Below, one piece after another: positions 8,880 to 50,007 of a stretch of DNA of 64,000 bases. The notes below the pieces were generated by a model. The model saw only the letters and a program-made list of their open reading frames with translations, made no database searches and was not told the DNA's origin. Within the stretch, counting starts at the first letter, position 1, and each line of letters opens with the position of its first letter. The stretch spans positions 864,001 to 928,000 of the forward strand of contig CAVVLJ010000016.1 of assembly GCA_963749075.1 (NCBI GenBank). Reading direction: 5' to 3'. A program made the position numbers and the translations under genes. The DNA is from an uncultured Pseudomonadota bacterium (GTDB lineage: Bacteria; Pseudomonadota; Alphaproteobacteria; JACZXZ01).

Positions 8880-10874
8880 TCAATCGCCGGCGGCGCCCAC
8901 GGCTCCGGCTGGGAGACGCCGGCGTGCCGGCGCGCCGACCCTGTAGCGGCGGTCGCTGAGGGAGACCAGGCCGCCGAACACCATGACGACCGCGCCGAAC
9001 CAGATCCACGGCGCCAGCGGATTGTTGTAGAGCCGCATCGTCCAGCCGCCCTTGCCGTCGGCATCGCCGAGCACGACGTAGAGATCGCTGAAGCCGGTGG
9101 TGCGGATCGCCGTCTGGGTCTCGTTGGTGTCGTCGCCCGCGACCGAGAAGAGGCGCTTCTCGGGATGCATCGTGGCGATCTCCTTGCCGTCCCTGCGCAC
9201 CACGACGGTGGCTCGGTCGGCGCGGAAATTGGCGCCCGCGACGGGCTCGACGTCCGCGAGGGTCACCTGATAGCCGGCGATCTCGGTCGCCTCGCCCACC
9301 CGCATGGTGCGGATATCCTCGGCCTTCCACGCGGTCGTGCCGATGATGCCGGCGAACACGATGCCGAGGCCGGCATGGGCAAGCGTGGTGCCGTAGCAGG
9401 AGCGCGGCAGATGGAGCGCCCGCTGCCAGCTCTCCGCGGCGGGCGCGCGCCCGATGCGCAGGCGCTCGGCGAGCTCGACGAGGGCGCCGACGAAGACCCA
9501 GGCGGCCAGCGCCATGCCGAAGACGGCGAGGAGCGGCCCGCCGCCGTGGAGATACCAGGCGACGGCAGCGGCCAGAACCGCGGCGACGCCCGCGAGCCAC
9601 AGGCGCTCGAGGGCGCCCAGGAGATCGGCACGCTTCCACGCCATGAGCGGCCCCAGCACCACCACGACGAGGAGCGGCGTCATGATCGGGGTGAAGGTCA
9701 TGTTGAAGAAGGGGGCGCCGACCGAGATCTTGGGGCCGCCGACCGCGTCGAGGAAGAGGGGATAGAGCGTCCCGATGAAGACCGTCGCGGCGGCGCACGA
9801 GAGCAGGAGGTTGTTGAGGAGAAGCGCACCCTCGCGGCTCACCGGCGCGAAGAGCCCGCCGCCCTGGAGCGTCGGCGCGCGCACGGCATAGAGGATGAGC
9901 GAGCCGCCGATGGCGACCACCAGGAGCCCGAGGATGAAGACGCCGCGCGTCGGATCCGTGGCGAAGGCATGCACCGAGGTGAGCACGCCCGAGCGCACCA
10001 GGAAGGTGCCGATGAGGCTCAGCGAGAAGGTGACGATGGCGAGGAGGATGGTCCAGCTCTTGAGCGCGTTGCGCCGCTCGACCACGATCGCCGAGTGCAG
10101 CAGTGCCGTGCCGGCGAGCCAGGGCATGAAGGAGGCGTTCTCGACCGGGTCCCAGAACCAGAAGCCGCCCCAGCCGAGGGTGTAATAGGCCCACCAGCTC
10201 CCCATGGCGATGCCGAGCGTGAGCACGCACCAGGCGGCCAGCGTCCACGGCCGCACCCAGCGCGCCCAGGCGGCGTCCACGCGGCCCTCGATCAGCGCCG
10301 CGACCGCGAAGGAGAAGGCCATCGAGAAGCCGACGTAGCCGAGATAGAGGAAGGGCGGATGGAAGGCGAGGCCCGGATCCTGGAGAAGCGGGTTCAGCCC
10401 GCGTCCGTCCGGCGGCGGCGGAAAGATGCGCGCAAAGGGGTTCGAGGTCAGGAGGATGAAGGTGAGGAAGCCCACCGCGATCATCGCCTGCACGGCGAGC
10501 ACGCGCGCCTGGAGGGCCGGCGGCAGGTTGCCGCCAAATGTCGCGACGCCGGCCCCGAAGAAGGTGAGGATGAGCACCCAGAGGACCATCGAGCCCTCGT
10601 GGTTGCCCCACACGCCCGCCACCTTGTAGAGGAGCGGCATGTCGGAGTGGGAATACTCGTAGGCGGTGAAGACCGAGAAGTCGGAGGTGACGAAGGCATT
10701 GATGAGCGCCAGGAAGGCGATGAGCACGAGGACGAATTGCACCTGGGCGGCCGGCCGCGCGAGTGCTATGAGCGGCCCATTGGCCCGCGCGGCGCCATAG
10801 AGCGGCACCGTCGCCTGCACCACGGCGATCAGCAGCGCCAGCACGAGTGCAAAATGGCCGATTTCGGCGATCAT
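8880..10874 (-). CDS. ccmF: Heme lyase CcmF/NrfE subunit
   Basis: WGNHEGS, LNPLLQDPGLAFHPP, WGGFWFWDPVENASFMPW, SVHAF. Confidence 0.97.
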   Translation of the reverse strand: MIAEIGHFALVLALLIAVVQATVPLYGAARANGPLIALARPAAQVQFVLVLIAFLALINAFVTSDFSVFTAYEYSHSDMPLLYKVAGVWGNHEGSMVLWVLILTFFGAGVATFGGNLPPALQARVLAVQAMIAVGFLTFILLTSNPFARIFPPPPDGRGLNPLLQDPGLAFHPPFLYLGYVGFSMAFSFAVAALIEGRVDAAWARWVRPWTLAAWCVLTLGIAMGSWWAYYTLGWGGFWFWDPVENASFMPWLAGTALLHSAIVVERRNALKSWTILLAIVTFSLSLIGTFLVRSGVLTSVHAFATDPTRGVFILGLLVVAIGGSLILYAVRAPTLQGGGLFAPVSREGALLLNNLLLSCAAATVFIGTLYPLFLDAVGGPKISVGAPFFNMTFTPIMTPLLVVVVLGPLMAWKRADLLGALERLWLAGVAAVLAAAVAWYLHGGGPLLAVFGMALAAWVFVGALVELAERLRIGRAPAAESWQRALHLPRSCYGTTLAHAGLGIVFAGIIGTTAWKAEDIRTMRVGEATEIAGYQVTLADVEPVAGANFRADRATVVVRRDGKEIATMHPEKRLFSVAGDDTNETQTAIRTTGFSDLYVVLGDADGKGGWTMRLYNNPLAPWIWFGAVVMVFGGLVSLSDRRYRVGAPARRRLPAGAVGAAGD

Positions 10875-11035
10875 CCCACGTCCACCCTTGTTCGGCCGCG
10901 CCGCGCAAAGCCCGCGGCTGTCCGGATGTTGCGTCGCAAACAGAACCTTTAGCGGACGCCCGCGGCGACCGCGTATACACTCTAGCGCGGAATGGCAGCG
11001 CCGGCCAAGCCGTAGTCGCCGCACGGAGCAGCCCC

Positions 11036-12218: not shown

Positions 12219-13022
12219 ATGGCCGAGGAGCCGGTGCTTTACGCGGAGGAGGGCGGCATCGTCACGCTGACGCTGAACCGCCCGGAGCTGCGCAACGCGA
12301 TCACGGACGGCGACATCATCGAGCGGCTGGTGGAGGCGGTCGAGCGCATGAACGCCGACATGGGCGTGCGCGCCGCCATCCTGACCGGCGCTGGGAGCGC
12401 CTTCTGCTCGGGCGGCAACCTGAAGCGCATGGCCGAGCGCGCGGGCCCCGGCGCCGAGGCGCCGGTCGAATCGCGGCGCTGGTACAAGCTCGGCATCCAC
12501 CGCATCCCGTTGGCACTCGAGCGGCTCGAGGTGCCCATCATCGCCGCGGTCAACGGCCCCGCCATCGGCGCCGGCTGCGATCTCGCCTGCATGTGCGACA
12601 TCCGCATCGCCGGCGAGAGTGCGCGCTTCGCCGAGAGCTTCGTCAAGCTCGGCATCATCTCGGGCGACGGCGGCGCCTGGCTCCTGCCGCGCGTGGTCGG
12701 CTTCTCCAAGGCGAGCGAGATGACCTATACGGGAGATGCGATCGACGCGCGCGAGGCGCTCGCCTGCGGGCTCGTCTCGCGGGTGGTGCCCGATGCCGAG
12801 CTCATGCCCGCGGCGAAGGCGCTCGCCCAGCGCATCGCGGCCAATCCGCCCCATGCGGTGCGCATGACCAAGCGCCTCCTCCACGAGGGCCGCCACATGC
12901 GGCTCGACAGCCTGCTCGAGCTCGCGGCGGCCATGCAGTCGCTCGCCCACGCCACGGCCGACCACAAGGAGGCTGTCACCGCATTCCTCGAGAAGCGCAA
13001 GCCGAGCTTCAAGGGGGATTAG
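12219..13022 (+). CDS. Crotonase / enoyl-CoA hydratase family
   Basis: LTLNRPELRNA, AFCSGGNL, AAVNGPAIGAGCDLACMCDIR. Confidence 0.93.
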   Translation: MAEEPVLYAEEGGIVTLTLNRPELRNAITDGDIIERLVEAVERMNADMGVRAAILTGAGSAFCSGGNLKRMAERAGPGAEAPVESRRWYKLGIHRIPLALERLEVPIIAAVNGPAIGAGCDLACMCDIRIAGESARFAESFVKLGIISGDGGAWLLPRVVGFSKASEMTYTGDAIDAREALACGLVSRVVPDAELMPAAKALAQRIAANPPHAVRMTKRLLHEGRHMRLDSLLELAAAMQSLAHATADHKEAVTAFLEKRKPSFKGD

Positions 13023-13309
13023 CGGAGCCGCAGGGAGACGGCGCGGGAGGCCCGGCGCGCACGCCGAGCTGGTGAACCGTCACTCGCCGCCGGCACGACC
13101 TCCCTCTCGCCCTCCGTGGCAAAACCTAATGCGTCACCCACGCCCGCCGCCTGTGGACAGCCGGCTGCGGAGCACGTACACTTATTGCGAGTAAAAGCCG
13201 CGCCCATAGGGGGTCGGAGCGGCCGGCGGATCGCAACAAGATCGTCGATCGGCGCACCTGCCATCCGCCCGCCGTCCGGGAGGCGGGCACGTGGTCGAGG
13301 GAAGGCGTC

Positions 13310-14767
13310 ATGCGGCACATGGTGCTCGTCATCTCCGATCTTCATTTCGAGGAGGAGGCCGCCGACATCATCGGGACGCCGGGGACTCCCGGCGCCATCG
13401 ACTTCCGCAGGAACGTCCCGGGGCGGGCCTTCGAGGAAATGATGGTCGATGTCATGGGCATGGCGGAGACCCACGAGGCCGACAAATTGGACTTCGTCCT
13501 GGCCGGCGATATTTTCGATTTGCACCGGACCCAGCTTTGGTTCTCGCAGGCCGGCGCCCCGTCCTCGCCTCTGCGCCCCTATGTCGATTGCGGCGATGTC
13601 CGCGCGGGCTCGCCGCTCGAGGCGAAAATCCTCTCGGTCCTGGATCATATCGTCGCCGAGCCGGACGTGAGCCGCAGCCTCGCCGTCTTCCGCCGGTTGG
13701 CGGGCAATGAATTTCTGGCGAAGCCGGACGACCCGGGGTCGAGCCGGAAATGCGGCTTTCCGACCGAGCTGCATTACTTCCCCGGCAACCACGACCGCCT
13801 CGCCAACGCCACGCCGGACATCCGGAGCCGTATCCGCGGGCTCCTCGGCCTGCCGCCCGATCACGGCTCCTTCTCGCATCAGCTCATCCTTTCGGATCCG
13901 CCGATCCTGATCCGGCACGGGCATGAATACGACCGCTTCAATTTCGCCGTTGATCTGCGCAAGCAAAAGATCGCCGTCTCGCTTCCCGACGTTTGCTACG
14001 ACACGGCGACTTTCGGCGATTTCATCACGGTCATGGTCGCCGCGCGGCTGCCCAACCTCTTCCGCTCGATGAAGGGCGACGCCGTCATCCTCGATGATCC
14101 CGTGCTGCAGGCCATCTATTGCCGGCTGCTCGAATTCGATGATCTCCGGCCGCAATCCAAGATCGTCGATTTCTTTCTCAACACCACGGTTCCTCGGCAT
14201 TTGCGCGCGAGATTTGCAGACCGCGCGGATTGGCAACGGCAGATCTGGAAGGAGGTCGAGCCCGTTGTGAGACGGCTGCTCGACGAGGTGGTGTCCGACC
14301 CCTACTTCCTGCGCTGGAGCAGGCGGCTTCTCAAATTCTACCTGCGATGGCTGATGCGCGCGCGGCCCTGGCGCTTCGGCATTCCGCTGTGGGCCGTGCG
14401 GTTTGCCCGTTACTTTCTCGGCAGCGGGGACGACGGGCCGCAAACCTTCGCCGCGCGCGAGGAGGCGCTCGAGACCGAGGCGGCCTGCTTCATCGTGGCG
14501 GGGCATACGCATAAGCCGAACGTCGCGCATCTCTTCACGCAACACCATCTCAAGAAATATTTCGTCGACACGGGAACCTGGCGGAACGCCATCCTGGCGG
14601 GCACGAACAAGTCCTCCTATGGGCGGGTGAATGCCACGACCTATGTGGCGTTCTACGGCGCGGAGCCGGCGCCGGGCGGCGCCACGCACGTCGCGGGTCC
14701 CGAGCGCGGGTTCGAGTTCTGGACCGGCTTCAATCAGAATTGGCCAGTCGACGGCTACGACCAGTAG
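13310..14767 (+). CDS. Uncharacterised calcineurin-like metallophosphoesterase with a large insertion
   Basis: All five motifs present: ISDLH, AGDIFD, GNHD, HGHEYD, GHTH; C-terminal DTGTWR. Confidence 0.8.
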   Translation: MRHMVLVISDLHFEEEAADIIGTPGTPGAIDFRRNVPGRAFEEMMVDVMGMAETHEADKLDFVLAGDIFDLHRTQLWFSQAGAPSSPLRPYVDCGDVRAGSPLEAKILSVLDHIVAEPDVSRSLAVFRRLAGNEFLAKPDDPGSSRKCGFPTELHYFPGNHDRLANATPDIRSRIRGLLGLPPDHGSFSHQLILSDPPILIRHGHEYDRFNFAVDLRKQKIAVSLPDVCYDTATFGDFITVMVAARLPNLFRSMKGDAVILDDPVLQAIYCRLLEFDDLRPQSKIVDFFLNTTVPRHLRARFADRADWQRQIWKEVEPVVRRLLDEVVSDPYFLRWSRRLLKFYLRWLMRARPWRFGIPLWAVRFARYFLGSGDDGPQTFAAREEALETEAACFIVAGHTHKPNVAHLFTQHHLKKYFVDTGTWRNAILAGTNKSSYGRVNATTYVAFYGAEPAPGGATHVAGPERGFEFWTGFNQNWPVDGYDQ

Positions 14768-14790
14768 CGGCCCCGGCCAAGGGGCGGGCA

Positions 14791-16509
14791 ATGGCGGAAT
14801 ACGACTACGACGTCGTGGTGATCGGCAGCGGCTTCGGCGGCTCGATCGCCGCCTGCCGGACGGCCATGAAATGGCCGGGCCGCGTGCTCCTGCTCGAGCG
14901 CGGCAAGCGCTATCCGATGGGATCCTTCCCGCGCACGCCTCGCGCGCTGGCGGCCAATTTCTGGAACCTGCCATCGGAAGATCGCGCCCGTCCCGCGCAT
15001 GTCGCGAAGCATGAGCTGCACGGTATGTTCGACATCCGCAACTACCGCCACCTCGACGCCGTCCTATGCGCCGGCCTCGGCGGCGGCTCGCTGATCTACG
15101 CCAATGTCTTTCTCGAGCCGCCCAAGGAAGTCTTCGCGGCGGGCTGGCCGAAGGCGCTGAGCATGGACATGCTGGTACCCTATTACGCCGTGGCCAAGTC
15201 CGTGCTGGGGGCAAGGACGATCCCGCAGAACGGCGACCCGCGCCGCGATATTCTTCGCACGAGGCTGTTCGAGGAGGTGGCGCGGCATCAGGGACGCTCG
15301 ACCCGGCTCGCGGAGATCAACGTCTTTTTCGGCAACGATTTCGAGACCCCGCTCGAGATCGGGGTGCAAGAGCGCAATCGCTACGGCGCATTGCAGACCT
15401 CCTGCGTCTACTGCGGCGAATGCGATGTCGGCTGCAACACGCATTCGAAGAACACGCTCGACCTCAACTACCTTCACGTTGCCGAGAAGCACCACGGGGC
15501 GAAGGTCCTCACCGAGCATCTGGCGACGAGGATCGCGCCGGCGGGGACGGACGGCAGGGATGACCCGACGACCGCGGGCGAGAGCGGCTACCGCGTCTAT
15601 TTCGACGATCTCGCCGCCGGAACGTCGTCGTCGGTGCTTGCGCGACGGGTGGTCGTCTCGTCGGGCGCGATGGGATCGACGGAGCTCCTCATGCGCTGCC
15701 GCGACGTGCACGGCACGCTGCCCCATATCTCGCTTGAGCTCGGCCGCCGCTTCTCGGCCAACGGCGACTTCCTCTCCTTCGTCGTCGCCGGCAAGAAGCC
15801 GGCCGATCCGAATTACGGCCCGGTGATCACCCGCTACATCGATTACAACCTTTTCACGGGCTTCGATCGCGACCGTGCCTTCATCCTCGAGGACGCCGCC
15901 TATCCCGCTTTCGCCGCCTGGTATGTCGAAGGCGTGCGGCCGGCGCTGACGACAATCCCGGCGATCGCGAAGGCGCTTGCCCATCTGGTGAGACGCTGGC
16001 TCGGGGGCGCCTCGCTGGGGCGGATGGGGTTCCTCTTCGCCGATGTCCTCAAAGGCGACCTGTCCTTCCACAGCGCCGTGCTTCTCTGCATGGGCCTCGA
16101 CCAAGCCACCGGCAGGATGGCGCTCAATCGCAACGGCTACCTCGAGATCGACTGGCCCTATCGTGACAGCCTGCCGCTCTACGATGCGATCAACCGGACG
16201 GCGCGCGCCTTCGGCCGGGAGATCGGAGCGCAGGCGGTGACGGCCCTCCCCAACTGGTGGTGGCCGCTGCGCAAGAACATCACCGTCCACTCGCTCGGCG
16301 GCTGCCGCCTGGGCGACGATGCGCGGGCCGGCGTGACCGACGCCGCGCCCGGCCGGATGGGGCAGGTCTTCGGCTATGCCGGCCTTTACGTGGCCAACGG
16401 CTCGATCGTCCCGACGGCGCTCGGCGCGAACCCGGTGGCGACGATCTCGGCGCTTTCGGAGATGGTGGCCGAGGGCATCACCGGTATTGCGCCGACGGCG
16501 GCGTTGTGA
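14791..16509 (+). CDS. GMC oxidoreductase, cholesterol-oxidase-like (ChoD-type)
   Basis: GSGFGG, LLERG, GLGGGSLIYANV, CVYCGECDVGC, SKNTLDLNYL, TVHSLGG, GANPVATI. Confidence 0.9.
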   Translation: MAEYDYDVVVIGSGFGGSIAACRTAMKWPGRVLLLERGKRYPMGSFPRTPRALAANFWNLPSEDRARPAHVAKHELHGMFDIRNYRHLDAVLCAGLGGGSLIYANVFLEPPKEVFAAGWPKALSMDMLVPYYAVAKSVLGARTIPQNGDPRRDILRTRLFEEVARHQGRSTRLAEINVFFGNDFETPLEIGVQERNRYGALQTSCVYCGECDVGCNTHSKNTLDLNYLHVAEKHHGAKVLTEHLATRIAPAGTDGRDDPTTAGESGYRVYFDDLAAGTSSSVLARRVVVSSGAMGSTELLMRCRDVHGTLPHISLELGRRFSANGDFLSFVVAGKKPADPNYGPVITRYIDYNLFTGFDRDRAFILEDAAYPAFAAWYVEGVRPALTTIPAIAKALAHLVRRWLGGASLGRMGFLFADVLKGDLSFHSAVLLCMGLDQATGRMALNRNGYLEIDWPYRDSLPLYDAINRTARAFGREIGAQAVTALPNWWWPLRKNITVHSLGGCRLGDDARAGVTDAAPGRMGQVFGYAGLYVANGSIVPTALGANPVATISALSEMVAEGITGIAPTAAL

Positions 16510-16555
16510 CAAGCCGCCCCCGGCCGCCTATCAAGGATGCAAAGGGGACGCGACC

Positions 16556-18355
16556 ATGAACGGGCAGGACCAGGCGATCCGCTTCCAGTTCACCGAGGAT
16601 ATGAGGGGCTTCATCGCCTTCGGTCAATCCAACTACCAGGACGGCTACGACCAGGGCGTGAAAGACGGCACGCCCTTCATGTTCCATCTCACCCTCAAGA
16701 CGGATGACCTCGATCGCTTCCTCTCGACGCCGCAGCATGAGGCCGAGGCGATCGGCTACGTCGATTGTGCCGCTCTCGGCGGGCGCTGCCCGGTCGAGCG
16801 CGGCTGGTTCAATCTTTTCATCGACACCGCCGATGCCGATCGCAAGCTGATGACCTATCGCCTTTTCTTCCGCGACGCCGAGAACCGGCCCTTGACGCTG
16901 AGCGGCCATAAGCAGGTGCAGGACAAGCCGGGCTTCAACGTCTGGAAGGATACCACGACGCTCTTCACCAATCTGTTTGCCGGCCATATCGCGAAGGACG
17001 AGGAAGCGTCGGAGTCGCTCAAGGCGGTCGGGATTCTCCATATCGGCATGCTCGATTTCGCCAAGGAGCTCGCCACGGTCCGCGCCTTCGCCCCGACCTT
17101 TGCCGGCCGCGTGGCGGCGCTGGAGAGGTTCGGCCGCTACTTCCTCGGCTCCTTATGGCAGACCTACGGTCACTTGCCGTCCCTCAAGATGGGCCGCTTC
17201 GACCGCGAGATCCCGCTTTACACGACCGAGGGGGTGGTGGGCGCTGAGATCACCAGCCATCCCTTCACCACCGGCGACAAGCTGGGATTGAGCATGCTGC
17301 GCTTCCAAAAGGCCCCCGCCGACGATGTCGTGCTGATCATCCACGGGCTCACCACCTCGAGCGACATGTTCATCATGCCCGAGCATTACAATCTGGTGCA
17401 ATTCCTGCTGGACAACGGCTTCTCCGACGTTTGGACCCTCGATTTCCGCATGAGCAATCGCTTCTCCTACAATCTGCACCGCAACCGCTACAACATGGAC
17501 AACGTCGCGCTGTTCGACTATCCGGCGGCGCTCGCGACCCTGCGCGCGCGGATCGGGCACGGCGCGCGGCTCCACGTCATCTGCCACTGCCTCGGCTCGG
17601 TCTCCTTCACGATGAGCCTGTTCGGCAAGGCGGTGACGGGTGTCTCGAGCGTCATCGCCAACAGCGTCGCGCTGACGCCCTGTGTGCCGGGCTGGTCGCG
17701 GTTCAAGCTCACCCTCGCGCCGTTCCTTTGCGATTACGTCTTCGGAATCGAGTACGCCAATCCCTATTGGCGGCGCGAGCCGGGCTTCTCGGTGGGGAAG
17801 GTCCTGGCGACGATGGTCTCGGCGTTCCATCGCGAGTGCGACGTGCCCGAATGCCACATGCTGAGCTTCATGTGGGGCACGGGATGGCCCGCGCTCTACA
17901 GCCACGAAAACCTGCACGACTTGACCCATCGCCGGGGCGGCGATCTCTACGGCGGCGTCAGCTTCCAATATTTCCGCCATGTTCTGAAGATGGTGTCGGC
18001 GGGCAACACGGCCGTCAAATACGACGAGCGCGATCCGACATATTCATCCCTGCCCAGCGACTATCTGCAATATGCCCGGGAGATCGAGACCCCCGTTCTG
18101 TTCATGACGGGAGAGGACAACCACATCTTCGCGGATTCCAATATCCGATGCTACGAGCGGTTGCAAAAGCTCGTGCCCGGCCGGCATGAGCTGCAGGTTT
18201 TTCCGAATTACGGCCATCAGGACGTGTTCATGGGCAAGAATTGCCATATCAACGTCTTTCCGCGCCTGCTCGAATTCCTCAAGCGTCAACGCGACAAGCA
18301 CCGGTCGCCAACCGCCGTCGTGCCGCCCGCTCGAGCGGCGAGCGGCGGCGGCTGA
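16556..18355 (+). CDS. Two-domain protein: unassigned ~200-aa N-terminal domain plus alpha/beta-hydrolase with a Cys nucleophile
   Basis: VLIIHGL, VWTLDFR, elbow ICHCLGS, PVLFMTGEDN, YGHQD. Confidence 0.82.
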   Translation: MNGQDQAIRFQFTEDMRGFIAFGQSNYQDGYDQGVKDGTPFMFHLTLKTDDLDRFLSTPQHEAEAIGYVDCAALGGRCPVERGWFNLFIDTADADRKLMTYRLFFRDAENRPLTLSGHKQVQDKPGFNVWKDTTTLFTNLFAGHIAKDEEASESLKAVGILHIGMLDFAKELATVRAFAPTFAGRVAALERFGRYFLGSLWQTYGHLPSLKMGRFDREIPLYTTEGVVGAEITSHPFTTGDKLGLSMLRFQKAPADDVVLIIHGLTTSSDMFIMPEHYNLVQFLLDNGFSDVWTLDFRMSNRFSYNLHRNRYNMDNVALFDYPAALATLRARIGHGARLHVICHCLGSVSFTMSLFGKAVTGVSSVIANSVALTPCVPGWSRFKLTLAPFLCDYVFGIEYANPYWRREPGFSVGKVLATMVSAFHRECDVPECHMLSFMWGTGWPALYSHENLHDLTHRRGGDLYGGVSFQYFRHVLKMVSAGNTAVKYDERDPTYSSLPSDYLQYAREIETPVLFMTGEDNHIFADSNIRCYERLQKLVPGRHELQVFPNYGHQDVFMGKNCHINVFPRLLEFLKRQRDKHRSPTAVVPPARAASGGG

Positions 18356-18527
18356 GGGCAGCCCGCCCCTCGAGAGCGAACCCGAGCCTGGCCCGGTCGG
18401 TCCTCCCTTACGGGCGGGGCGGCGCCTGGTCTCGCGCAGCGCTGCCGCATTCTCCTTGTGAGCACCCCTCGTTGGCGGCACAATATCCGCGCAAGACCGG
18501 CGGCGGCACGGCGATAGGGGGACAACC

Positions 18528-19820
18528 ATGGTCGCGGCAACCCGGCACGAGAACGCCCCGGCGCACGGCTCGTCGAAGCAAGCGGTTGCGGCCGCGGTCG
18601 TCGGCAACGTGCTCGAGTGGTACGACTTCTCGGTCTACGCCTACGTCGCCACCACCATCGCCAAGAAGTTCTTCCCGGCCGGCGACAACGTCTCGGCGCT
18701 GCTCTCCACCTTTCTCGTCTTCGGCCTCGGCTTCCTGGCACGACCGCTCGGCGGCATCGTGATCGGGCGCTACGGCGACGTGCGCGGGCGCAAGGCCGCC
18801 CTCGTGCTCACCATCATGTTGATGGCCTCGGGCACCGTGCTGATCGGCGTCATTCCGAGCTATGCCTCGATCGGCGTCTTGGCTCCCATCCTCCTCGTCT
18901 TAGCGCGCCTGATGCAGGGCTTTTCCGCGGGCGGCGAGTGGGGCGGCTCGACGGCGTTCCTCGTCGAATGGGCGCCCGAGCCCCGCCGCGGGCTCTACGG
19001 CAGCTTTCAGCAGGCGAGCGTGGTGGGCGGCATCGTGCTGGGCTCCGGCATCGCGGCACTGGTCAGCACGATCCTCTCGCCGGACGCCATGGACGGCTGG
19101 GGCTGGCGCGTTCTCTTCCTGCTCGGCGGCATCCTGGGGCCGGTCGGCATGTACATGCGCCGGAACATCGGCGAGACGCCGGCCTACGAGCGCAGCAAGC
19201 GCGAGCCGGCGCCGGCGGCGCGCCTAGGCAACGTCTCCCCGCTCTGGCTTGCCGTGCGCGCCTTCGGCTTCACCATCAACTGGACGGTGATCTTCTATAT
19301 CTTCCTCTCCTACATGCCGACCTTCGCCCAGAAATACCTGCACATCGGACGGCCCGAGTCGCTGTGGTCGAACACCATCGGGGTGGTCGTGCTCATGGCG
19401 GCGATCCCGCTCATGGGCCATCTCTCGGACCGCTACGGCCGCAAGCCTTTTCTGCTGCTCTGCTGCGCGTGCTTCATCCTGCTGCCCTATCCCATCTTCG
19501 CCCTCATGCTCTCGGGCGTGTCGCTCGGCACCTTCATCCTGATCCAGGTCGCCGTCGGCCTGATGATCTCGCTCTTCTCCGGTCCGGGGCCGGCCGCCAT
19601 CTCGGAGATCTTCCCGACGCGGGTGCGCTCCACCTGGATGACGAGCGGCTATGCGCTCGCGGTCGCCATCTTCGGCGGCTTCGCGCCCTCCATCGCCATC
19701 TGGCTCATCGCCGTGACCGGGTCGCCGATCTCGCCGGTCTATTACGTGATCGCGGCGGCGGCGGTGAGCGCCATCTTCATCGCCAACCTCAAGGAGACGG
19801 CGCACGGGCGCCTGCCTTGA
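18528..19820 (+). CDS. MFS transporter, MHS (ProP-like) family
   Basis: GNVLEWYDF, RPLGG, RLMQGFSAGGEWGG, LSDRYGRK. Confidence 0.93.
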   Translation: MVAATRHENAPAHGSSKQAVAAAVVGNVLEWYDFSVYAYVATTIAKKFFPAGDNVSALLSTFLVFGLGFLARPLGGIVIGRYGDVRGRKAALVLTIMLMASGTVLIGVIPSYASIGVLAPILLVLARLMQGFSAGGEWGGSTAFLVEWAPEPRRGLYGSFQQASVVGGIVLGSGIAALVSTILSPDAMDGWGWRVLFLLGGILGPVGMYMRRNIGETPAYERSKREPAPAARLGNVSPLWLAVRAFGFTINWTVIFYIFLSYMPTFAQKYLHIGRPESLWSNTIGVVVLMAAIPLMGHLSDRYGRKPFLLLCCACFILLPYPIFALMLSGVSLGTFILIQVAVGLMISLFSGPGPAAISEIFPTRVRSTWMTSGYALAVAIFGGFAPSIAIWLIAVTGSPISPVYYVIAAAAVSAIFIANLKETAHGRLP

Positions 19821-45310: not shown

Positions 45311-46408
<1,098 letters not shown>

Positions 46409-46425
46409 GCTTGGGACTCCCGGGA

Positions 46426-47322
46426 TCAGCCCTTGGTGGCGCCGGCGGTGAGCCCGGCAATGTAATAGTCCATGAGAAAGGCGTAGATGACGAGCGGAGG
46501 TGCCGCCGCGATGAGGGCGGCGGTCATGATCATGCCCCACTGGTAGACGTCGCCCTTGACGAGGGTGGTCACCGTGCCGGCCGTGAGGACGAGCTGGTCG
46601 GAGCTGAAGATGAAGGCCATGGGATAGACGAACTCGGACCACGACACCGTGAAGGCGAAGATCGTTGCCGCGATGAGGCCGGGCAGCGCCACGGGGATGA
46701 AGATCTTGAAGAGCATCTGGACGTGGTTGGCGCCGTCGATGAGGGCCGCCTCGTCGAGCTCCTTGGGGATGCTCTGGAAGTAGCCGATCATGATCCAGGT
46801 GCAAAACGGCACCGTGAGCGTCGGATAGACCAGCACCAGCGCCCAATACGAGTTCAGCAGCCCGAGCGCGCCCACGATCTTGAACATCGGGATGAAGAGC
46901 AGCGAATCCGGCACGAGATAGGTGAGGAATACTCCCGTCGCGAAGACGCCCGAGCCCCAGAACTTCATGCGCCCGAGTGCAAAGGCGGCCGGCACGCTGA
47001 TCACCATGCTGATCGCCACGGTGAGCAGCGTCACGATGACGGTGTTGAGGAAGTAGATGGGAAAATCCGTGTGATACAGCAGGGTCGTGATGTTCTCGGA
47101 GGTCGGCGGCAACGCCGGCGTCCAGGGATCGAGGGTCTGGTTCGAGATCTGCGAGCTCGTCTTGGTCGCGGTGACGAGCGCGTAGAAAGGCGGGGTCAAG
47201 AAGAAGATCGCGAAGACGATGAGGAAGACGTAGGACAGGATGAGCGCCCAGCGCCGGTTGCGCGAGAGGCTGCCGCGGAAGGAGAGCCGAGGCGCTGCGA
47301 CGGCGGCGGCGTCGGCCGTCAT
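46426..47322 (-). CDS. Carbohydrate ABC permease (MalG-like)
   Basis: YFQSIPKELDEAALIDGA. Confidence 0.92.
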   Translation of the reverse strand: MTADAAAVAAPRLSFRGSLSRNRRWALILSYVFLIVFAIFFLTPPFYALVTATKTSSQISNQTLDPWTPALPPTSENITTLLYHTDFPIYFLNTVIVTLLTVAISMVISVPAAFALGRMKFWGSGVFATGVFLTYLVPDSLLFIPMFKIVGALGLLNSYWALVLVYPTLTVPFCTWIMIGYFQSIPKELDEAALIDGANHVQMLFKIFIPVALPGLIAATIFAFTVSWSEFVYPMAFIFSSDQLVLTAGTVTTLVKGDVYQWGMIMTAALIAAAPPLVIYAFLMDYYIAGLTAGATKG

Positions 47323-48272
47323 CAGATCTCCCTCCCGCGCCGCATCACGCCGCGCAGGATGAAGAAGGCGGAGACGCCGAGGATGGGGAACATGAAGAGG
47401 GACACCGCCGAGCCGAGCGGAATGTCGCCCACCTGGATGCCCAGCTGGAAGGCGTAAGTTGCGAACACGTGGGTCATGTTGCGCGGACCGCCCGAGGTCA
47501 ACACGCGGACGATGTCGTAGTTCGCGAAGGTGACGATGAGCGAGAGCAGGACGGTGATGGCGATGATGTTACGCATCATGGGCAGCGTGATGTGGACGAA
47601 GCGCTGCCAGGCGCTGGCTCCGTCGATGGACGCCGCCTCATAGAGCTGCTCGGGCACCGACTTGATGGCGGCCAGGTACATGATCAGGAAGAAGGGCGCG
47701 CCGTACCAGACGTTGACCAGCACCGCGCAGAAGCGTGCCCAATAGGGCTCGCTGAGCCAGGCCACGTGCATGCCGAAGTGGCCGAGGATCCAGTTGAAGG
47801 CGCTGTAGGTGGGATCGAACATCCACCACCAGGTCAGCGTCGAGAGCGAAAGCGGCATGACCCAGGGCACCAGCAGCATGCCGCGCCATTTGCGCTGGCC
47901 CTTGGAGGGCAGATTGTTCACGAGATGCGCCGTGATGATGCCGATGAGCGCCTTGAAGAACACCGCGCTGACCGCGAAGATCGTCGATTGCTCGACCACC
48001 ATCCAGAAGGTGTCGCGGCCCAGGAGAAACGTGAAATTGCCGAGACCGATGAACTTGGTCTGGGCCTTGTTCAGCAGCGAGAGATAGATCGAATAGAGGA
48101 AGGGAAAGAGCACCAGCCCTATCACAAGGGCCATGAGCGGGGTGCACCACAGGACCGCGATCGTCGTCCGCCGTTGCATCAGCTTGTGCAGGCTGCTGCG
48201 CGACGGGCGCGGCAAGGTCGCGGCACCCAGGAAATCGGCCGCGCCGAGCGGCTTGTGGACTTGGTCGACCAT
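47322..48272 (-). CDS. Carbohydrate ABC permease (MalF-like)
   Basis: LYEAASIDGASAWQRF.HITLP. Confidence 0.92.
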   Translation of the reverse strand: MVDQVHKPLGAADFLGAATLPRPSRSSLHKLMQRRTTIAVLWCTPLMALVIGLVLFPFLYSIYLSLLNKAQTKFIGLGNFTFLLGRDTFWMVVEQSTIFAVSAVFFKALIGIITAHLVNNLPSKGQRKWRGMLLVPWVMPLSLSTLTWWWMFDPTYSAFNWILGHFGMHVAWLSEPYWARFCAVLVNVWYGAPFFLIMYLAAIKSVPEQLYEAASIDGASAWQRFVHITLPMMRNIIAITVLLSLIVTFANYDIVRVLTSGGPRNMTHVFATYAFQLGIQVGDIPLGSAVSLFMFPILGVSAFFILRGVMRRGREI

Positions 48273-48425
48273 GGCGATCAGCTCCCGCTGTTGCCGTTCC
48301 ACAATCGGGAGCGGGCGTGCCCCGCCGGCAGCCCGCTCTCAAGAACCCGGATGGAAACGGCGGCCGTCATGCCGAAGCGGCGGTGCGCCGTTCCACCGAT
48401 ACCTGTCCCGTCCTCCGCGCGGCGA

Positions 48426-49779
48426 TCAGGTGCGGAGATAGCCCTCAAGCTCGCCCGACGCCCACTTGATGACCTCGTCGATCTTCTGCTTGCCCTGGGC
48501 GACCTTCGCGATCATGACGGTCTGCAGGGCCTGATTGTAAATCTGCGCCGCGATATCGGGCCGCGCCGGATATCCGGCCATGCTGTATTGCTCGTCCCCG
48601 CGCGGCGGATAGTTGTAGACGGTGCCCAAGGGCGGCTCGACCGTCTTCCAGGTATCGAAATCATAGTAGCTCTTGAAGGACGGCAGGTCGTAGCCGCTCG
48701 AGGCGGCAACGAGACGCCTCGCTTGCGGCTTGTCCACGATATAGTGGACGAGCTCCTTGGCGGCCGTCTTGTTGGTGCCGAAATTCCAAATGCCGTAGAT
48801 GAACGGCAGGTGGGGGGCGAAGCGGCCCTTGGGTCCGCGCGGCATGTCGTGGGTCCAGCACTGCTCGCCCACGGGACGGTTGTCGCGCACCGCGACGGCC
48901 CAGGCGCTCGGCGGATTCATGATGTTCGAGCCCTTGCCCGAGATGAGCCAGCGGTTGTTGCCGGCGTCGTCCCAGGCATAGACGTTCAGGCGAATTGGCC
49001 GCCATCAGTTTCGCGGCGTATTCGAGGACGGTGCGGGTCTCGGGCGAATCGATCTTGATCTGGTCCTTCTCGTCGACGAAGACCGAGCCGTGGCCGCGGA
49101 AGAGGGCGCCCACCCAGTCGATGGCGTCGCTCGTCTGGCCCATGGGCAAACCGACCGGGAAGCCGCCCTTGAAGAGCTGCTCCGCGGTCTTGAGGTACAT
49201 CGCCCAGTCCCAACTCTCGACCAGCGCCTTGTCGCGCTCCACGCCCGGGCCGGGAAACATCTTCACGATGTCGACGTCGCAATACTTCTTGTAGAGATCG
49301 ATGCGCGAGCAGCACGGCTTGACCTGGCTGCCGCAGATAGCCGGAATGCCCATCCAGTGGCCGTCGAACTTGGAGAGATACTCGCAAGTGTCGGCGATCG
49401 GCCCATGGTCCTTGATGAGCGCCGAGATCACGTCGTCGGTAGGCTCGAGCTTGGCGCGGTGAACCGTGATCTGCCAGGCGCGATGGGAGAAGATGTCGTG
49501 GCCGGTGCCGGCTTGCGCCTCGGCGCTTCCGGTCAAGAGATCCTTGTCGCCGATCGTGGTGATGTAGTCGATGTGGATCTCGACCTTGTTCTTCTCGCCC
49601 CATTCGTTGACGATCGCCGTCAAGGTATCGTTGGCGCCGGGGACCCAGTGGTCCCAGGCCCCGATGGCTAGCTTGCCGGCAGCATAGCTCGTGCGCATGT
49701 AGGGTGCTGCCACGAGCGCAGTCGTGGCCAGCGCGGTCTTCGCGATGAACTTGCGGCGTGAAATCTTGCTCCGAGTCAT
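48426..49779 (-). CDS. Carbohydrate-type ABC substrate-binding protein (Tat-type signal), one extra base near 48985
   Basis: SRRKF signal, WDHWVPGAN; removing one A joins the frames as NSPDVYAWDDAGNNRWLISGKGSNIMNPPSAW. Confidence 0.82.
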
Positions 49780-50007
49780 CTCTGCTCCTCCCAAGGTCGC
49801 GGGCGATCACTGCACCCGATCGTTGATATCATTGAGTCCGATAATATAACCGAATGCGGGCAAGAGGAATAGGCCGATCGTAGCGGCAAGCAAAAGGCCG
49901 CGGCCTCGGGCGGAGGTGCTGCAAATCCAGGCAAAAATGCGGCACGAGGCCGCCAAACGTCCCGGCCGGGCCGTTGCCCCGGTCGCCCCGCCCGGCCGCC
50001 GGCGCGC

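Follow-up and report, generated by a model that had tools for sequence, protein, structure and literature searches.

The 64,000-nucleotide stretch of contig CAVVLJ010000016.1 analysed here (the window; uncultured Pseudomonadota bacterium, assembly GCA_963749075.1, positions 864,001 to 928,000) carries three closely spaced genes on its forward strand, encoding a metallophosphoesterase, a GMC flavoprotein and an alpha/beta-hydrolase with a Cys nucleophile. Gene A (13310-14767, +) is an open reading frame (ORF) of 485 amino acids, gene B (14791-16509, +) is an ORF of 572 amino acids that begins from an ATG after a Shine-Dalgarno-like AAGGGG, and gene C (16556-18355, +) encodes 599 amino acids. 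The inner gaps measure 23 bp (A-B) and 46 bp (B-C), each with a Shine-Dalgarno-like purine run, and longer gaps of 287 bp upstream (13023-13309) and 172 bp downstream (18356-18527) set the trio apart, confirming the layout from which an earlier note on this DNA had proposed an uncharacterised cytoplasmic system acting on one lipid-like or phosphorylated metabolite, or else a stress or defence unit. No signal peptide was found in A, B or C, whose catalytic or flavin adenine dinucleotide (FAD) motifs lie directly at the N-terminus; likewise, in 23 homologues of B the FAD motif lies no more than about 45 residues from the called ORF start, and in most of them no more than about 25. Judged from their sequences, all three proteins look cytoplasmic, as the note had supposed, and alignments with relatives agree with its statement that A, B and C retain their catalytic motifs.

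The product of gene B belongs with the cholesterol oxidases. It matches GMC_oxred_N and GMC_oxred_C above the Pfam cut-offs and carries the GxGxxG FAD motif, and a profile of its family finds class I cholesterol oxidases (Streptomyces ChoA, 1B4V; Brevibacterium, 1COY), by far the nearest solved relatives, at E = 2e-59, with the next GMC family at 4e-16. Shared with these enzymes are the fold family, the FAD motif and an aligned pair of catalytic residues, His500 and Asn547 (16288-16431, +), which are invariant in the B-family alignment and fall on the 'YHPLGGC' and 'GVNP' stretches that hold the His and Asn of Streptomyces cholesterol oxidase. The available part of the source names a His/Asn pair as catalytic in cholesterol oxidase (PMC6719666). 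B differs from the class I enzymes in lacking a signal peptide, in always being paired or fused with a Cys hydrolase, and in a CX2CX2CX3C motif of ferredoxin type (C205, C208, C211 and C215; 15403-15435, +), a candidate iron-sulfur (Fe-S) site. The motif is invariant or nearly so in the B-family alignment, and it recurs in 70 of the 76 GMC ORFs found at related loci and in 27 of the 29 long proteins checked, eukaryotic forms and forms only 28-35% identical among them, whereas 1B4V has none of the four Cys at the aligned positions. Since a family-wide motif is thus without counterpart in the aligned cholesterol oxidase, B may be a dehydrogenase rather than an oxidase. Moreover, on the NCBIfam cholesterol oxidase model NF058674 (CholsOxChoxAB), B reaches 214.8 bits, below the equivalog cut-off of 850. 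The earlier assignment to a GMC oxidase of cholesterol-oxidase type therefore holds for the clade, and B is probably not a plain oxidase. A precedent among GMC dehydrogenases is Burkholderia FAD-glucose dehydrogenase, in which a Cys-rich loop holds a 3Fe-4S cluster. In the accessible portion of the same source, such enzymes (Burkholderia cepacia FAD-glucose dehydrogenase, fructose dehydrogenase) resemble B in their GMC membership, in a Cys-rich loop near residue 200 and in the His/Asn pair, and their cluster relays electrons from FAD (PMC6719666). Sequence likeness between B and these dehydrogenases is confined to the FAD-binding start (6A2U, best stretch 11-51).

Gene C encodes a two-part protein, modelled with a predicted local distance difference test (pLDDT) score of 92. 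Its N-terminal beta-rich domain (16556-17185, +; about residues 1-210), with eight long strands followed by a long helix and pLDDT mostly above 90, belongs to no Pfam family, either in C or in 18 short proteins that carry it; the sole confident Pfam match among the latter is the extra SRPBCC part of one protein (P0317), and in the ESM Atlas the domain falls only in hypothetical, nameless clusters. The second part is an alpha/beta-hydrolase domain with a cap (17228-18298, +; residues about 225-581), matching Abhydrolase_1 and Abhydrolase_6 above the Pfam cut-off, with the catalytic elbow C-H-C345-L-G completed by His554 and Asp556. Among solved structures, foldseek places gastric and lysosomal acid lipases first (target template modelling (TM) scores 0.71-0.74), and the C-family profile matches gastric lipase 1HLG at E = 5e-18; C shares with these lipases (gastric 1HLG and 1K8Q; lysosomal acid lipase/cholesteryl ester hydrolase 6V7N) the alpha/beta-hydrolase core with cap and the HG oxyanion motif. 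It differs from them in its apparently cytoplasmic location, its additional N-domain, a set of Cys and His residues in the cap and a nucleophile that is Cys and not the Ser of GxSxG: among 230 aligned sequences, the 191 with a residue at this position have Cys in 188, G in 2, L in 1 and Ser in none. For the N-terminal lipase region of the acid lipases, PF04083 scores 16.4 bits on C against a cut-off of 27. H554, D556, R298 and S300 are essentially invariant, and the cap set (C428, C433, H450 and H458, within residues 425-458), which is kept in about 90% of 187-188 aligned sequences, may form a metal or redox site. Homologues 60-79% identical to C occur in several proteobacterial classes and in Actinomycetota, and the automatic names of the Joint Genome Institute (JGI) call B-like and C-like proteins alike 'cholesterol oxidase'.

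Gene A has no Pfam or NCBIfam match at E <= 0.01 (the best Pfam family, Metallophos_2, gives E = 0.086), and it is called a metallophosphoesterase because of its motifs, its PF00149-bearing homologues and its fold. The motifs D10/H12, G66-D67..D70, G159-N-H-D162, H203 and G398-H-T-H401 are invariant among 30 aligned sequences, A aligning end to end with 29 relatives that keep all metal motifs. The AlphaFold model (pLDDT 89.7) shows the phosphoesterase sandwich with a large helical insertion, and the top 23 foldseek matches to solved structures (E <= 0.001) are all LpxH (E 9e-6 to 3e-4, target TM 0.40-0.49), followed by the glycerophosphodiesterase GpdQ and the sphingomyelinase-like SMPDL3. A profile of the A family matches LpxH over a partial stretch at E = 0.007, and LpxH is also the automatic JGI name of the family. 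Common to both are the calcineurin-like metal centre and a helical lid between the fifth metal motif and GHTH. However, A is twice the size of LpxH (485 versus about 240 amino acids), its cap alone comprising some 190 residues, it has no Pfam or NCBIfam assignment to LpxH, and no lpx gene flanks the trio in the window. The cap (13922-14494, +; about residues 205-395, between the H203 motif and GHTH) is helical over residues 227-388 in the model and rich in Trp, Arg and Phe, for example across residues 331-369, which would fit a role at the membrane interface.

The earlier note had staked its proposal on clustering of the homologues elsewhere, and such clustering was found. A genome scan anchored on the alignment of C yielded 591 relatives, of which the best 80 loci were kept; their hosts are Alpha-, Beta- and Gammaproteobacteria, Planctomycetota, Acidobacteriota, Actinomycetota, Chloroflexota, Nitrospinota, Myxococcota and Rhodothermota. 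By tblastn, 76 of these loci have a B homologue at most 10 kb from the C homologue, and in 57 it is co-oriented and no more than 300 bp away. Four loci are without one (L004, L014, L031, L049), and in three of them the contig ends at the start of the C match or just before it, so that an upstream GMC gene could not be seen. Furthermore, the neighbours of the trio in the window (major facilitator superfamily (MFS) transporter, deacetylase, enoyl-CoA hydratase and acyl-CoA dehydrogenase) recur in 0/80 loci, and clustering of the ORFs at the 80 loci gave no cross-lineage partner beyond the GMC protein, C and phosphoesterases. Other neighbours are specific to lineages, such as a 7TMR-DISM histidine kinase (23 loci), LuxR-type STAND regulators (8) and MarR proteins (8).

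Fusions, which the earlier note had suggested as a check, tie B and C together more closely still. Among the best 150 representative proteins listed, at least 28 have 1090 or more amino acids with the C-like part in the C-terminal half and are B-C fusions; the GMC domains and the hydrolase were confirmed by Pfam in all nine long fusions scanned. B and C are thus an obligate core pair, adjacent in at least nine phyla and often a single protein of about 1150 amino acids. The domains also enter wider combinations: PLAT or C2 precedes the GMC and C parts (P0375 from Fabomonas and P0354, respectively), SRPBCC is joined to C (P0321) or to the N-domain (P0317), patatin is joined to the N-domain (P0283, P0320, P0368), and a Metallophos domain is fused to C (P0331). 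The N-domain is separable: in loci of actinomycetes, Sphingomonas, Nitrospina and Myxococcota it forms the C-terminus of the GMC protein or is detached from the hydrolase.

The third partner, a phosphoesterase, recurs but is replaceable, and different lineages draw it from different subfamilies. With a profile built from 120 A homologues, an A-family (LpxH-like) gene was found adjoining the B-C pair in 35/80 loci, directly downstream of C and co-oriented in 34 of them, divergent and upstream in the remaining one (L021). A second PF00149 family, c17, takes the place in eight loci (L001, L002, L008-L011, L015, L067) and as a segment inside an ORF of L020; other PF00149 proteins adjoin the pair in L016, L070 and L017 (the last by likeness to that of L016), and a PhoD-like phosphatase in L019. 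Taken together, a phosphoesterase of some kind adjoins the pair in 48/80 loci (47 before the L020 segment is counted), 13 of these with a non-A-family protein, and in 36 of the 58 loci whose sequence extends 2.5 kb or more to either side of the pair. The phosphoesterase fused to C in P0331 is of c17 type (E = 3e-28 to the L015 protein). Ralstonia accounts for 127 of the 143 plasmid records that match C; in H5 of strain HA4-1, the only such region opened, a RoxA-like cytochrome c gene stands between a fused B-C gene and a c17-type phosphoesterase downstream. The trio as a unit, as the earlier note had conceived it, accordingly recurs, yet what is invariant is B plus C, with phosphoesterases from several unrelated subfamilies.

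A tree of the C hydrolase domain (80 rows, comprising 79 loci and the window; quick IQ-TREE run with support from the Shimodaira-Hasegawa-like approximate likelihood ratio test only) requires at least 17 changes of phosphoesterase type. On it, the C of the window groups with alphaproteobacterial rows whose partners differ, being c17 (L001, L002), A type (L021) or none (L013), and its closest relatives carry another phosphoesterase type than A. That unrelated subfamilies replace one another in this way argues most strongly for a module that depends on phosphoesterase activity and not on the A gene itself.

Our tentative reading, which we hold to be a serious possibility though somewhat short of probable, is that the trio is an operon-like unit encoding a conserved, uncharacterised, cytoplasmic and probably membrane-peripheral module of lipid processing. 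A role in lipid remodelling or lipid catabolism is our best guess, because the nearest solved relatives of the three proteins (LpxH, cholesterol oxidase, gastric and lysosomal acid lipases) are all lipid enzymes, as the lipid-like metabolite of the earlier note would have it, and because of the fusions to patatin, SRPBCC, PLAT and C2 domains. The target of the module would be a lipid on the cytoplasmic side of the membrane, and the phosphoesterase would remove a phosphate, pyrophosphate or phosphodiester head group from this lipid or a lipid precursor. B would dehydrogenate an alcohol, perhaps one made accessible in this way, with electrons passing from FAD through a cluster bound by the CX2CX2CX3C motif to an acceptor other than O2; the RoxA-like di-haem cytochrome c gene inside the Ralstonia cluster is counted in favour of such an electron relay. 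C may form a thioester acyl-enzyme on Cys345, from which the acyl chain would be removed or transferred, and its N-domain could connect B with C as a module for lipid binding or docking. The broader proposal, on balance doubtful, is that a widespread, unrecognised lipid pathway joins an Fe-S dehydrogenase branch of the cholesterol-oxidase clade, through a lipid-binding beta-domain, to a Cys lipase-like enzyme and a phosphoesterase, in at least nine phyla that include the plant pathogen Ralstonia and Leptospira, and that it was carried into some eukaryotes with C2 or PLAT membrane-targeting domains.

Several points weigh against the reading as a lipid-processing trio. Its chemical steps are all drawn from family likeness. 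The Cys motif of B could bind Zn or form disulfides instead of holding an Fe-S cluster, and its spacing differs from the C-C-x4-C-x3-C of the known enzymes as given in the available part of PMC6719666. In addition, no electron-acceptor gene adjoins the trio in the window, neither a cytochrome nor a twin-arginine translocation (Tat)-hitchhiker subunit, a cytochrome c gene being present in the Ralstonia cluster only. For A, the foldseek TM is low when normalised on the query (0.22-0.26), because the cap is without solved counterpart, and the two A subfamilies are merely 16-21% identical in pairs, yet align end to end with their motifs kept. The 80 loci are not independent, about 25 coming from Noviherbaspirillum-like and 8 from Methylomonas-like genomes. 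Searched by tblastn, A itself has a match in one locus of the 80 (L021, Reyranella), so the wider link needs the profile; a search for longer, fused forms of the A family found none, which is weak evidence; and 32/80 loci have no adjoining phosphoesterase, among them all eight full-flank Actinomadura-type and three of four Chitinimonas loci, so that the third enzyme would be dispensable or encoded elsewhere in those genomes. These last three points also speak for the view that only B and C are functional, A being an unrelated upstream neighbour in the genome of the window. We give this view little credence: the A family adjoins the pair in three gene orders beyond the window's own, other phosphoesterase subfamilies occupy the same place in 13 further loci, one of these subfamilies is fused to C, and a mere 23 bp separates A from B.

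Other functions can be imagined for the same enzymes. A unit of sterol or hopanoid turnover, in which C would be a steryl-ester hydrolase, B a true 3-beta-hydroxysteroid oxidase and the phosphoesterase an accessory, would agree with the class I cholesterol oxidases and cholesteryl ester hydrolase being the closest solved relatives and with the JGI name shared by B-like and C-like proteins, and some host groups (Methylococcales, Myxococcota, Planctomycetota) make sterols or hopanoids. We nevertheless think it improbable, given the low score of B on the equivalog model, its Cys motif foreign to the aligned cholesterol oxidase, the missing signal peptide, a C nucleophile that is never Ser, and the absence of steroid-catabolism genes from the flanks of the trio in the window; moreover, many hosts, such as Noviherbaspirillum, Gallionella, Chitinimonas and Ralstonia, are not known as sterol producers. 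The Cys nucleophile, accompanied by His and Asp, resembles that of polyhydroxyalkanoate (PHA) synthases, whose class I members are two-domain proteins similar in size to C (about 590 amino acids). C would then be a PhaC-like thiol transacylase or polymerase in a biosynthetic unit, forming an ester-linked product from hydroxy-acyl units that B makes or modifies. Yet the likeness to PhaC is marginal (profile E = 0.052 to 5HZ2; 9KNJ at foldseek rank 48), acid lipases match C far better, no PhaC_N, PhaC family or PHA synthase model of Pfam or NCBIfam matches it, and no coenzyme A (CoA) ligase, phasin or pha gene is conserved near the pair, all of which makes this function hardly probable. A further function would be that of an effector in conflict or stress, controlled by sensor proteins, which would attack membranes or generate reactive oxygen. 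It is suggested by five loci (L003, L013, L018, L020, L068) in which the pair has STAND NTPases, TPR-S/MAP3K-TRAF-binding proteins, PP2C-kinase, trypsin-like peptidases, subtilase or Fic as neighbours, and by the fusion of the N-domain to patatin phospholipases and the eukaryotic versions with C2 or PLAT. PADLOC-DB 2.0, however, gave 0 matches for A, B or C at E <= 1, the commonest regulators are two-component, LuxR-type and MarR proteins with no conserved immunity or toxin partner, and the trio sits in the window amid ordinary metabolism and transport. The chance that the unit is such an effector appears slim, and the defence role floated by the earlier note found no direct support.

The proposed lipid-processing module is not a categorically new system: it is conserved and unnamed, its proteins belong to known superfamilies, and each of them departs in at least one defining feature from the characterised family closest to it. 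No account of the trio, of the B-C fusion or of the Cys motif of B came up in the literature searches, nor did a published pathway with these three enzymes, in line with the earlier note; in its available part, the lipocone paper makes no mention of GMC enzymes (PMC12419801). Hundreds of genomes hold the unit under misleading automatic names such as 'cholesterol oxidase', 'choline dehydrogenase', 'LpxH' and 'alpha/beta fold hydrolase'. Should the coupling prove real, three uncharacterised enzyme families would together gain a concrete hypothesis. Two new enzyme classes are possible: an Fe-S branch of the cholesterol-oxidase clade, which would be relevant to biosensor and dehydrogenase enzymology, and a lipase fold with what may be an obligate Cys nucleophile. 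The presence of the unit in Ralstonia megaplasmids, Leptospira and methanotrophs means that a lipid-remodelling step may matter for the membrane biology of studied organisms.

A number of further observations concern these genes in other hosts. Eukaryotic or eukaryote-like versions of the fused protein are P0375, P0386 and P0354, which comprise a form with PLAT from Fabomonas tropica, one from the bdelloid rotifer Didymodactylos carnosus and one with C2, respectively. On plasmid lbp2 of Leptospira borgpetersenii (L083, 5288-8692), a fused gene carries the name 'alpha/beta fold hydrolase', and genes for sphingomyelin phosphodiesterase and adenylate cyclase are a few kb away. In a Leptospira interrogans transcriptome, adjacent genes that bear the annotations 'alpha/beta fold hydrolase' and 'cholesterol oxidase', and that may or may not be of this family, were both down-regulated according to the available part of the paper (PMC13066512). 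Two Leptospira transcriptome papers, in the parts available, merely list genes annotated 'cholesterol oxidase', again possible members only. In the Ralstonia region that was opened, on a Ralstonia solanacearum megaplasmid (L081, 5249-11957), the fused GMC/N-domain/Cys-hydrolase protein has 1150 amino acids and goes under the name 'choline dehydrogenase'. The RoxA-like di-haem cytochrome c encoded next is a membrane protein of 628 residues in which CxxCH occurs twice, and the c17-type metallophosphoesterase comes after it. Signalling or conflict-type neighbours of the pair, at several loci without an A-type phosphoesterase, also include cyclase-STAND-TPR, tyrosinase-trypsin and kinase-STAND proteins. 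The longest contigs of three A homologues and of three C homologues are equal in size (86190, 837376 and 6214 bp), a hint of further co-occurrence. On the tree of C, L029 and L015 are among the rows found in clades of another phylum or class, with Cypionkella inside a methanotroph clade and an actinomycetotal metagenome-assembled genome among Acidobacteriota; past gene transfer or binning errors could account for them.

Around the trio in the window, the genes upstream are ccmF, an acyl-CoA dehydrogenase and an enoyl-CoA hydratase, and those downstream an MFS transporter, a polysaccharide deacetylase and an amidase. The 287-bp gap from the stop of the hydratase to the start of A is presumed to be the promoter region; it holds a single sigma-70-like match (13154-13182), no more than shuffled sequences give, and the promoter and terminator scan of the trio region gave counts not above shuffled sequence. 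Neither flanking gap contains inverted repeats, and an Rfam scan of 12800-18700 found no accepted element in the upstream gap. The only match of that scan, to SAM-IV, falls within coding sequence and reaches 23 bits where the gathering score is 38 (E = 0.89); it was regarded as chance.

In base composition the trio departs slightly from its surroundings. The excess of A/T-ending codons seen by eye in the earlier note is real yet weak: GC content at third codon positions is 0.833 in A, 0.869 in B and 0.852 in C against a mean of 0.888 (standard deviation 0.040) over 36 further gene-like ORFs in the window, giving z-scores of -1.35, -0.46 and -0.90 and a one-sided Mann-Whitney p = 0.044 for the trio being lower. 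Between 5 and 10 background genes equal or fall below its members, which thus lie within the range of the window. A sliding-window check shows the trio's dip in GC, yet there are other dips in the window as well, whose overall GC is about 0.69. For the horizontal movement that the earlier note had raised, this small shift is weak evidence, and on the tree C lies in an alphaproteobacterial clade. The lowest GC of the window (0.635-0.637 in 2-kb windows), below that of the trio's region, is found at 46000-50000. Finally, the called ORFs of ccmF (-) and the acyl-CoA dehydrogenase (+) overlap at their 5' ends by 178 bp (10847-11024); since the Pfam match of the dehydrogenase begins at residue 78, at least one of the two starts was probably called too far upstream.

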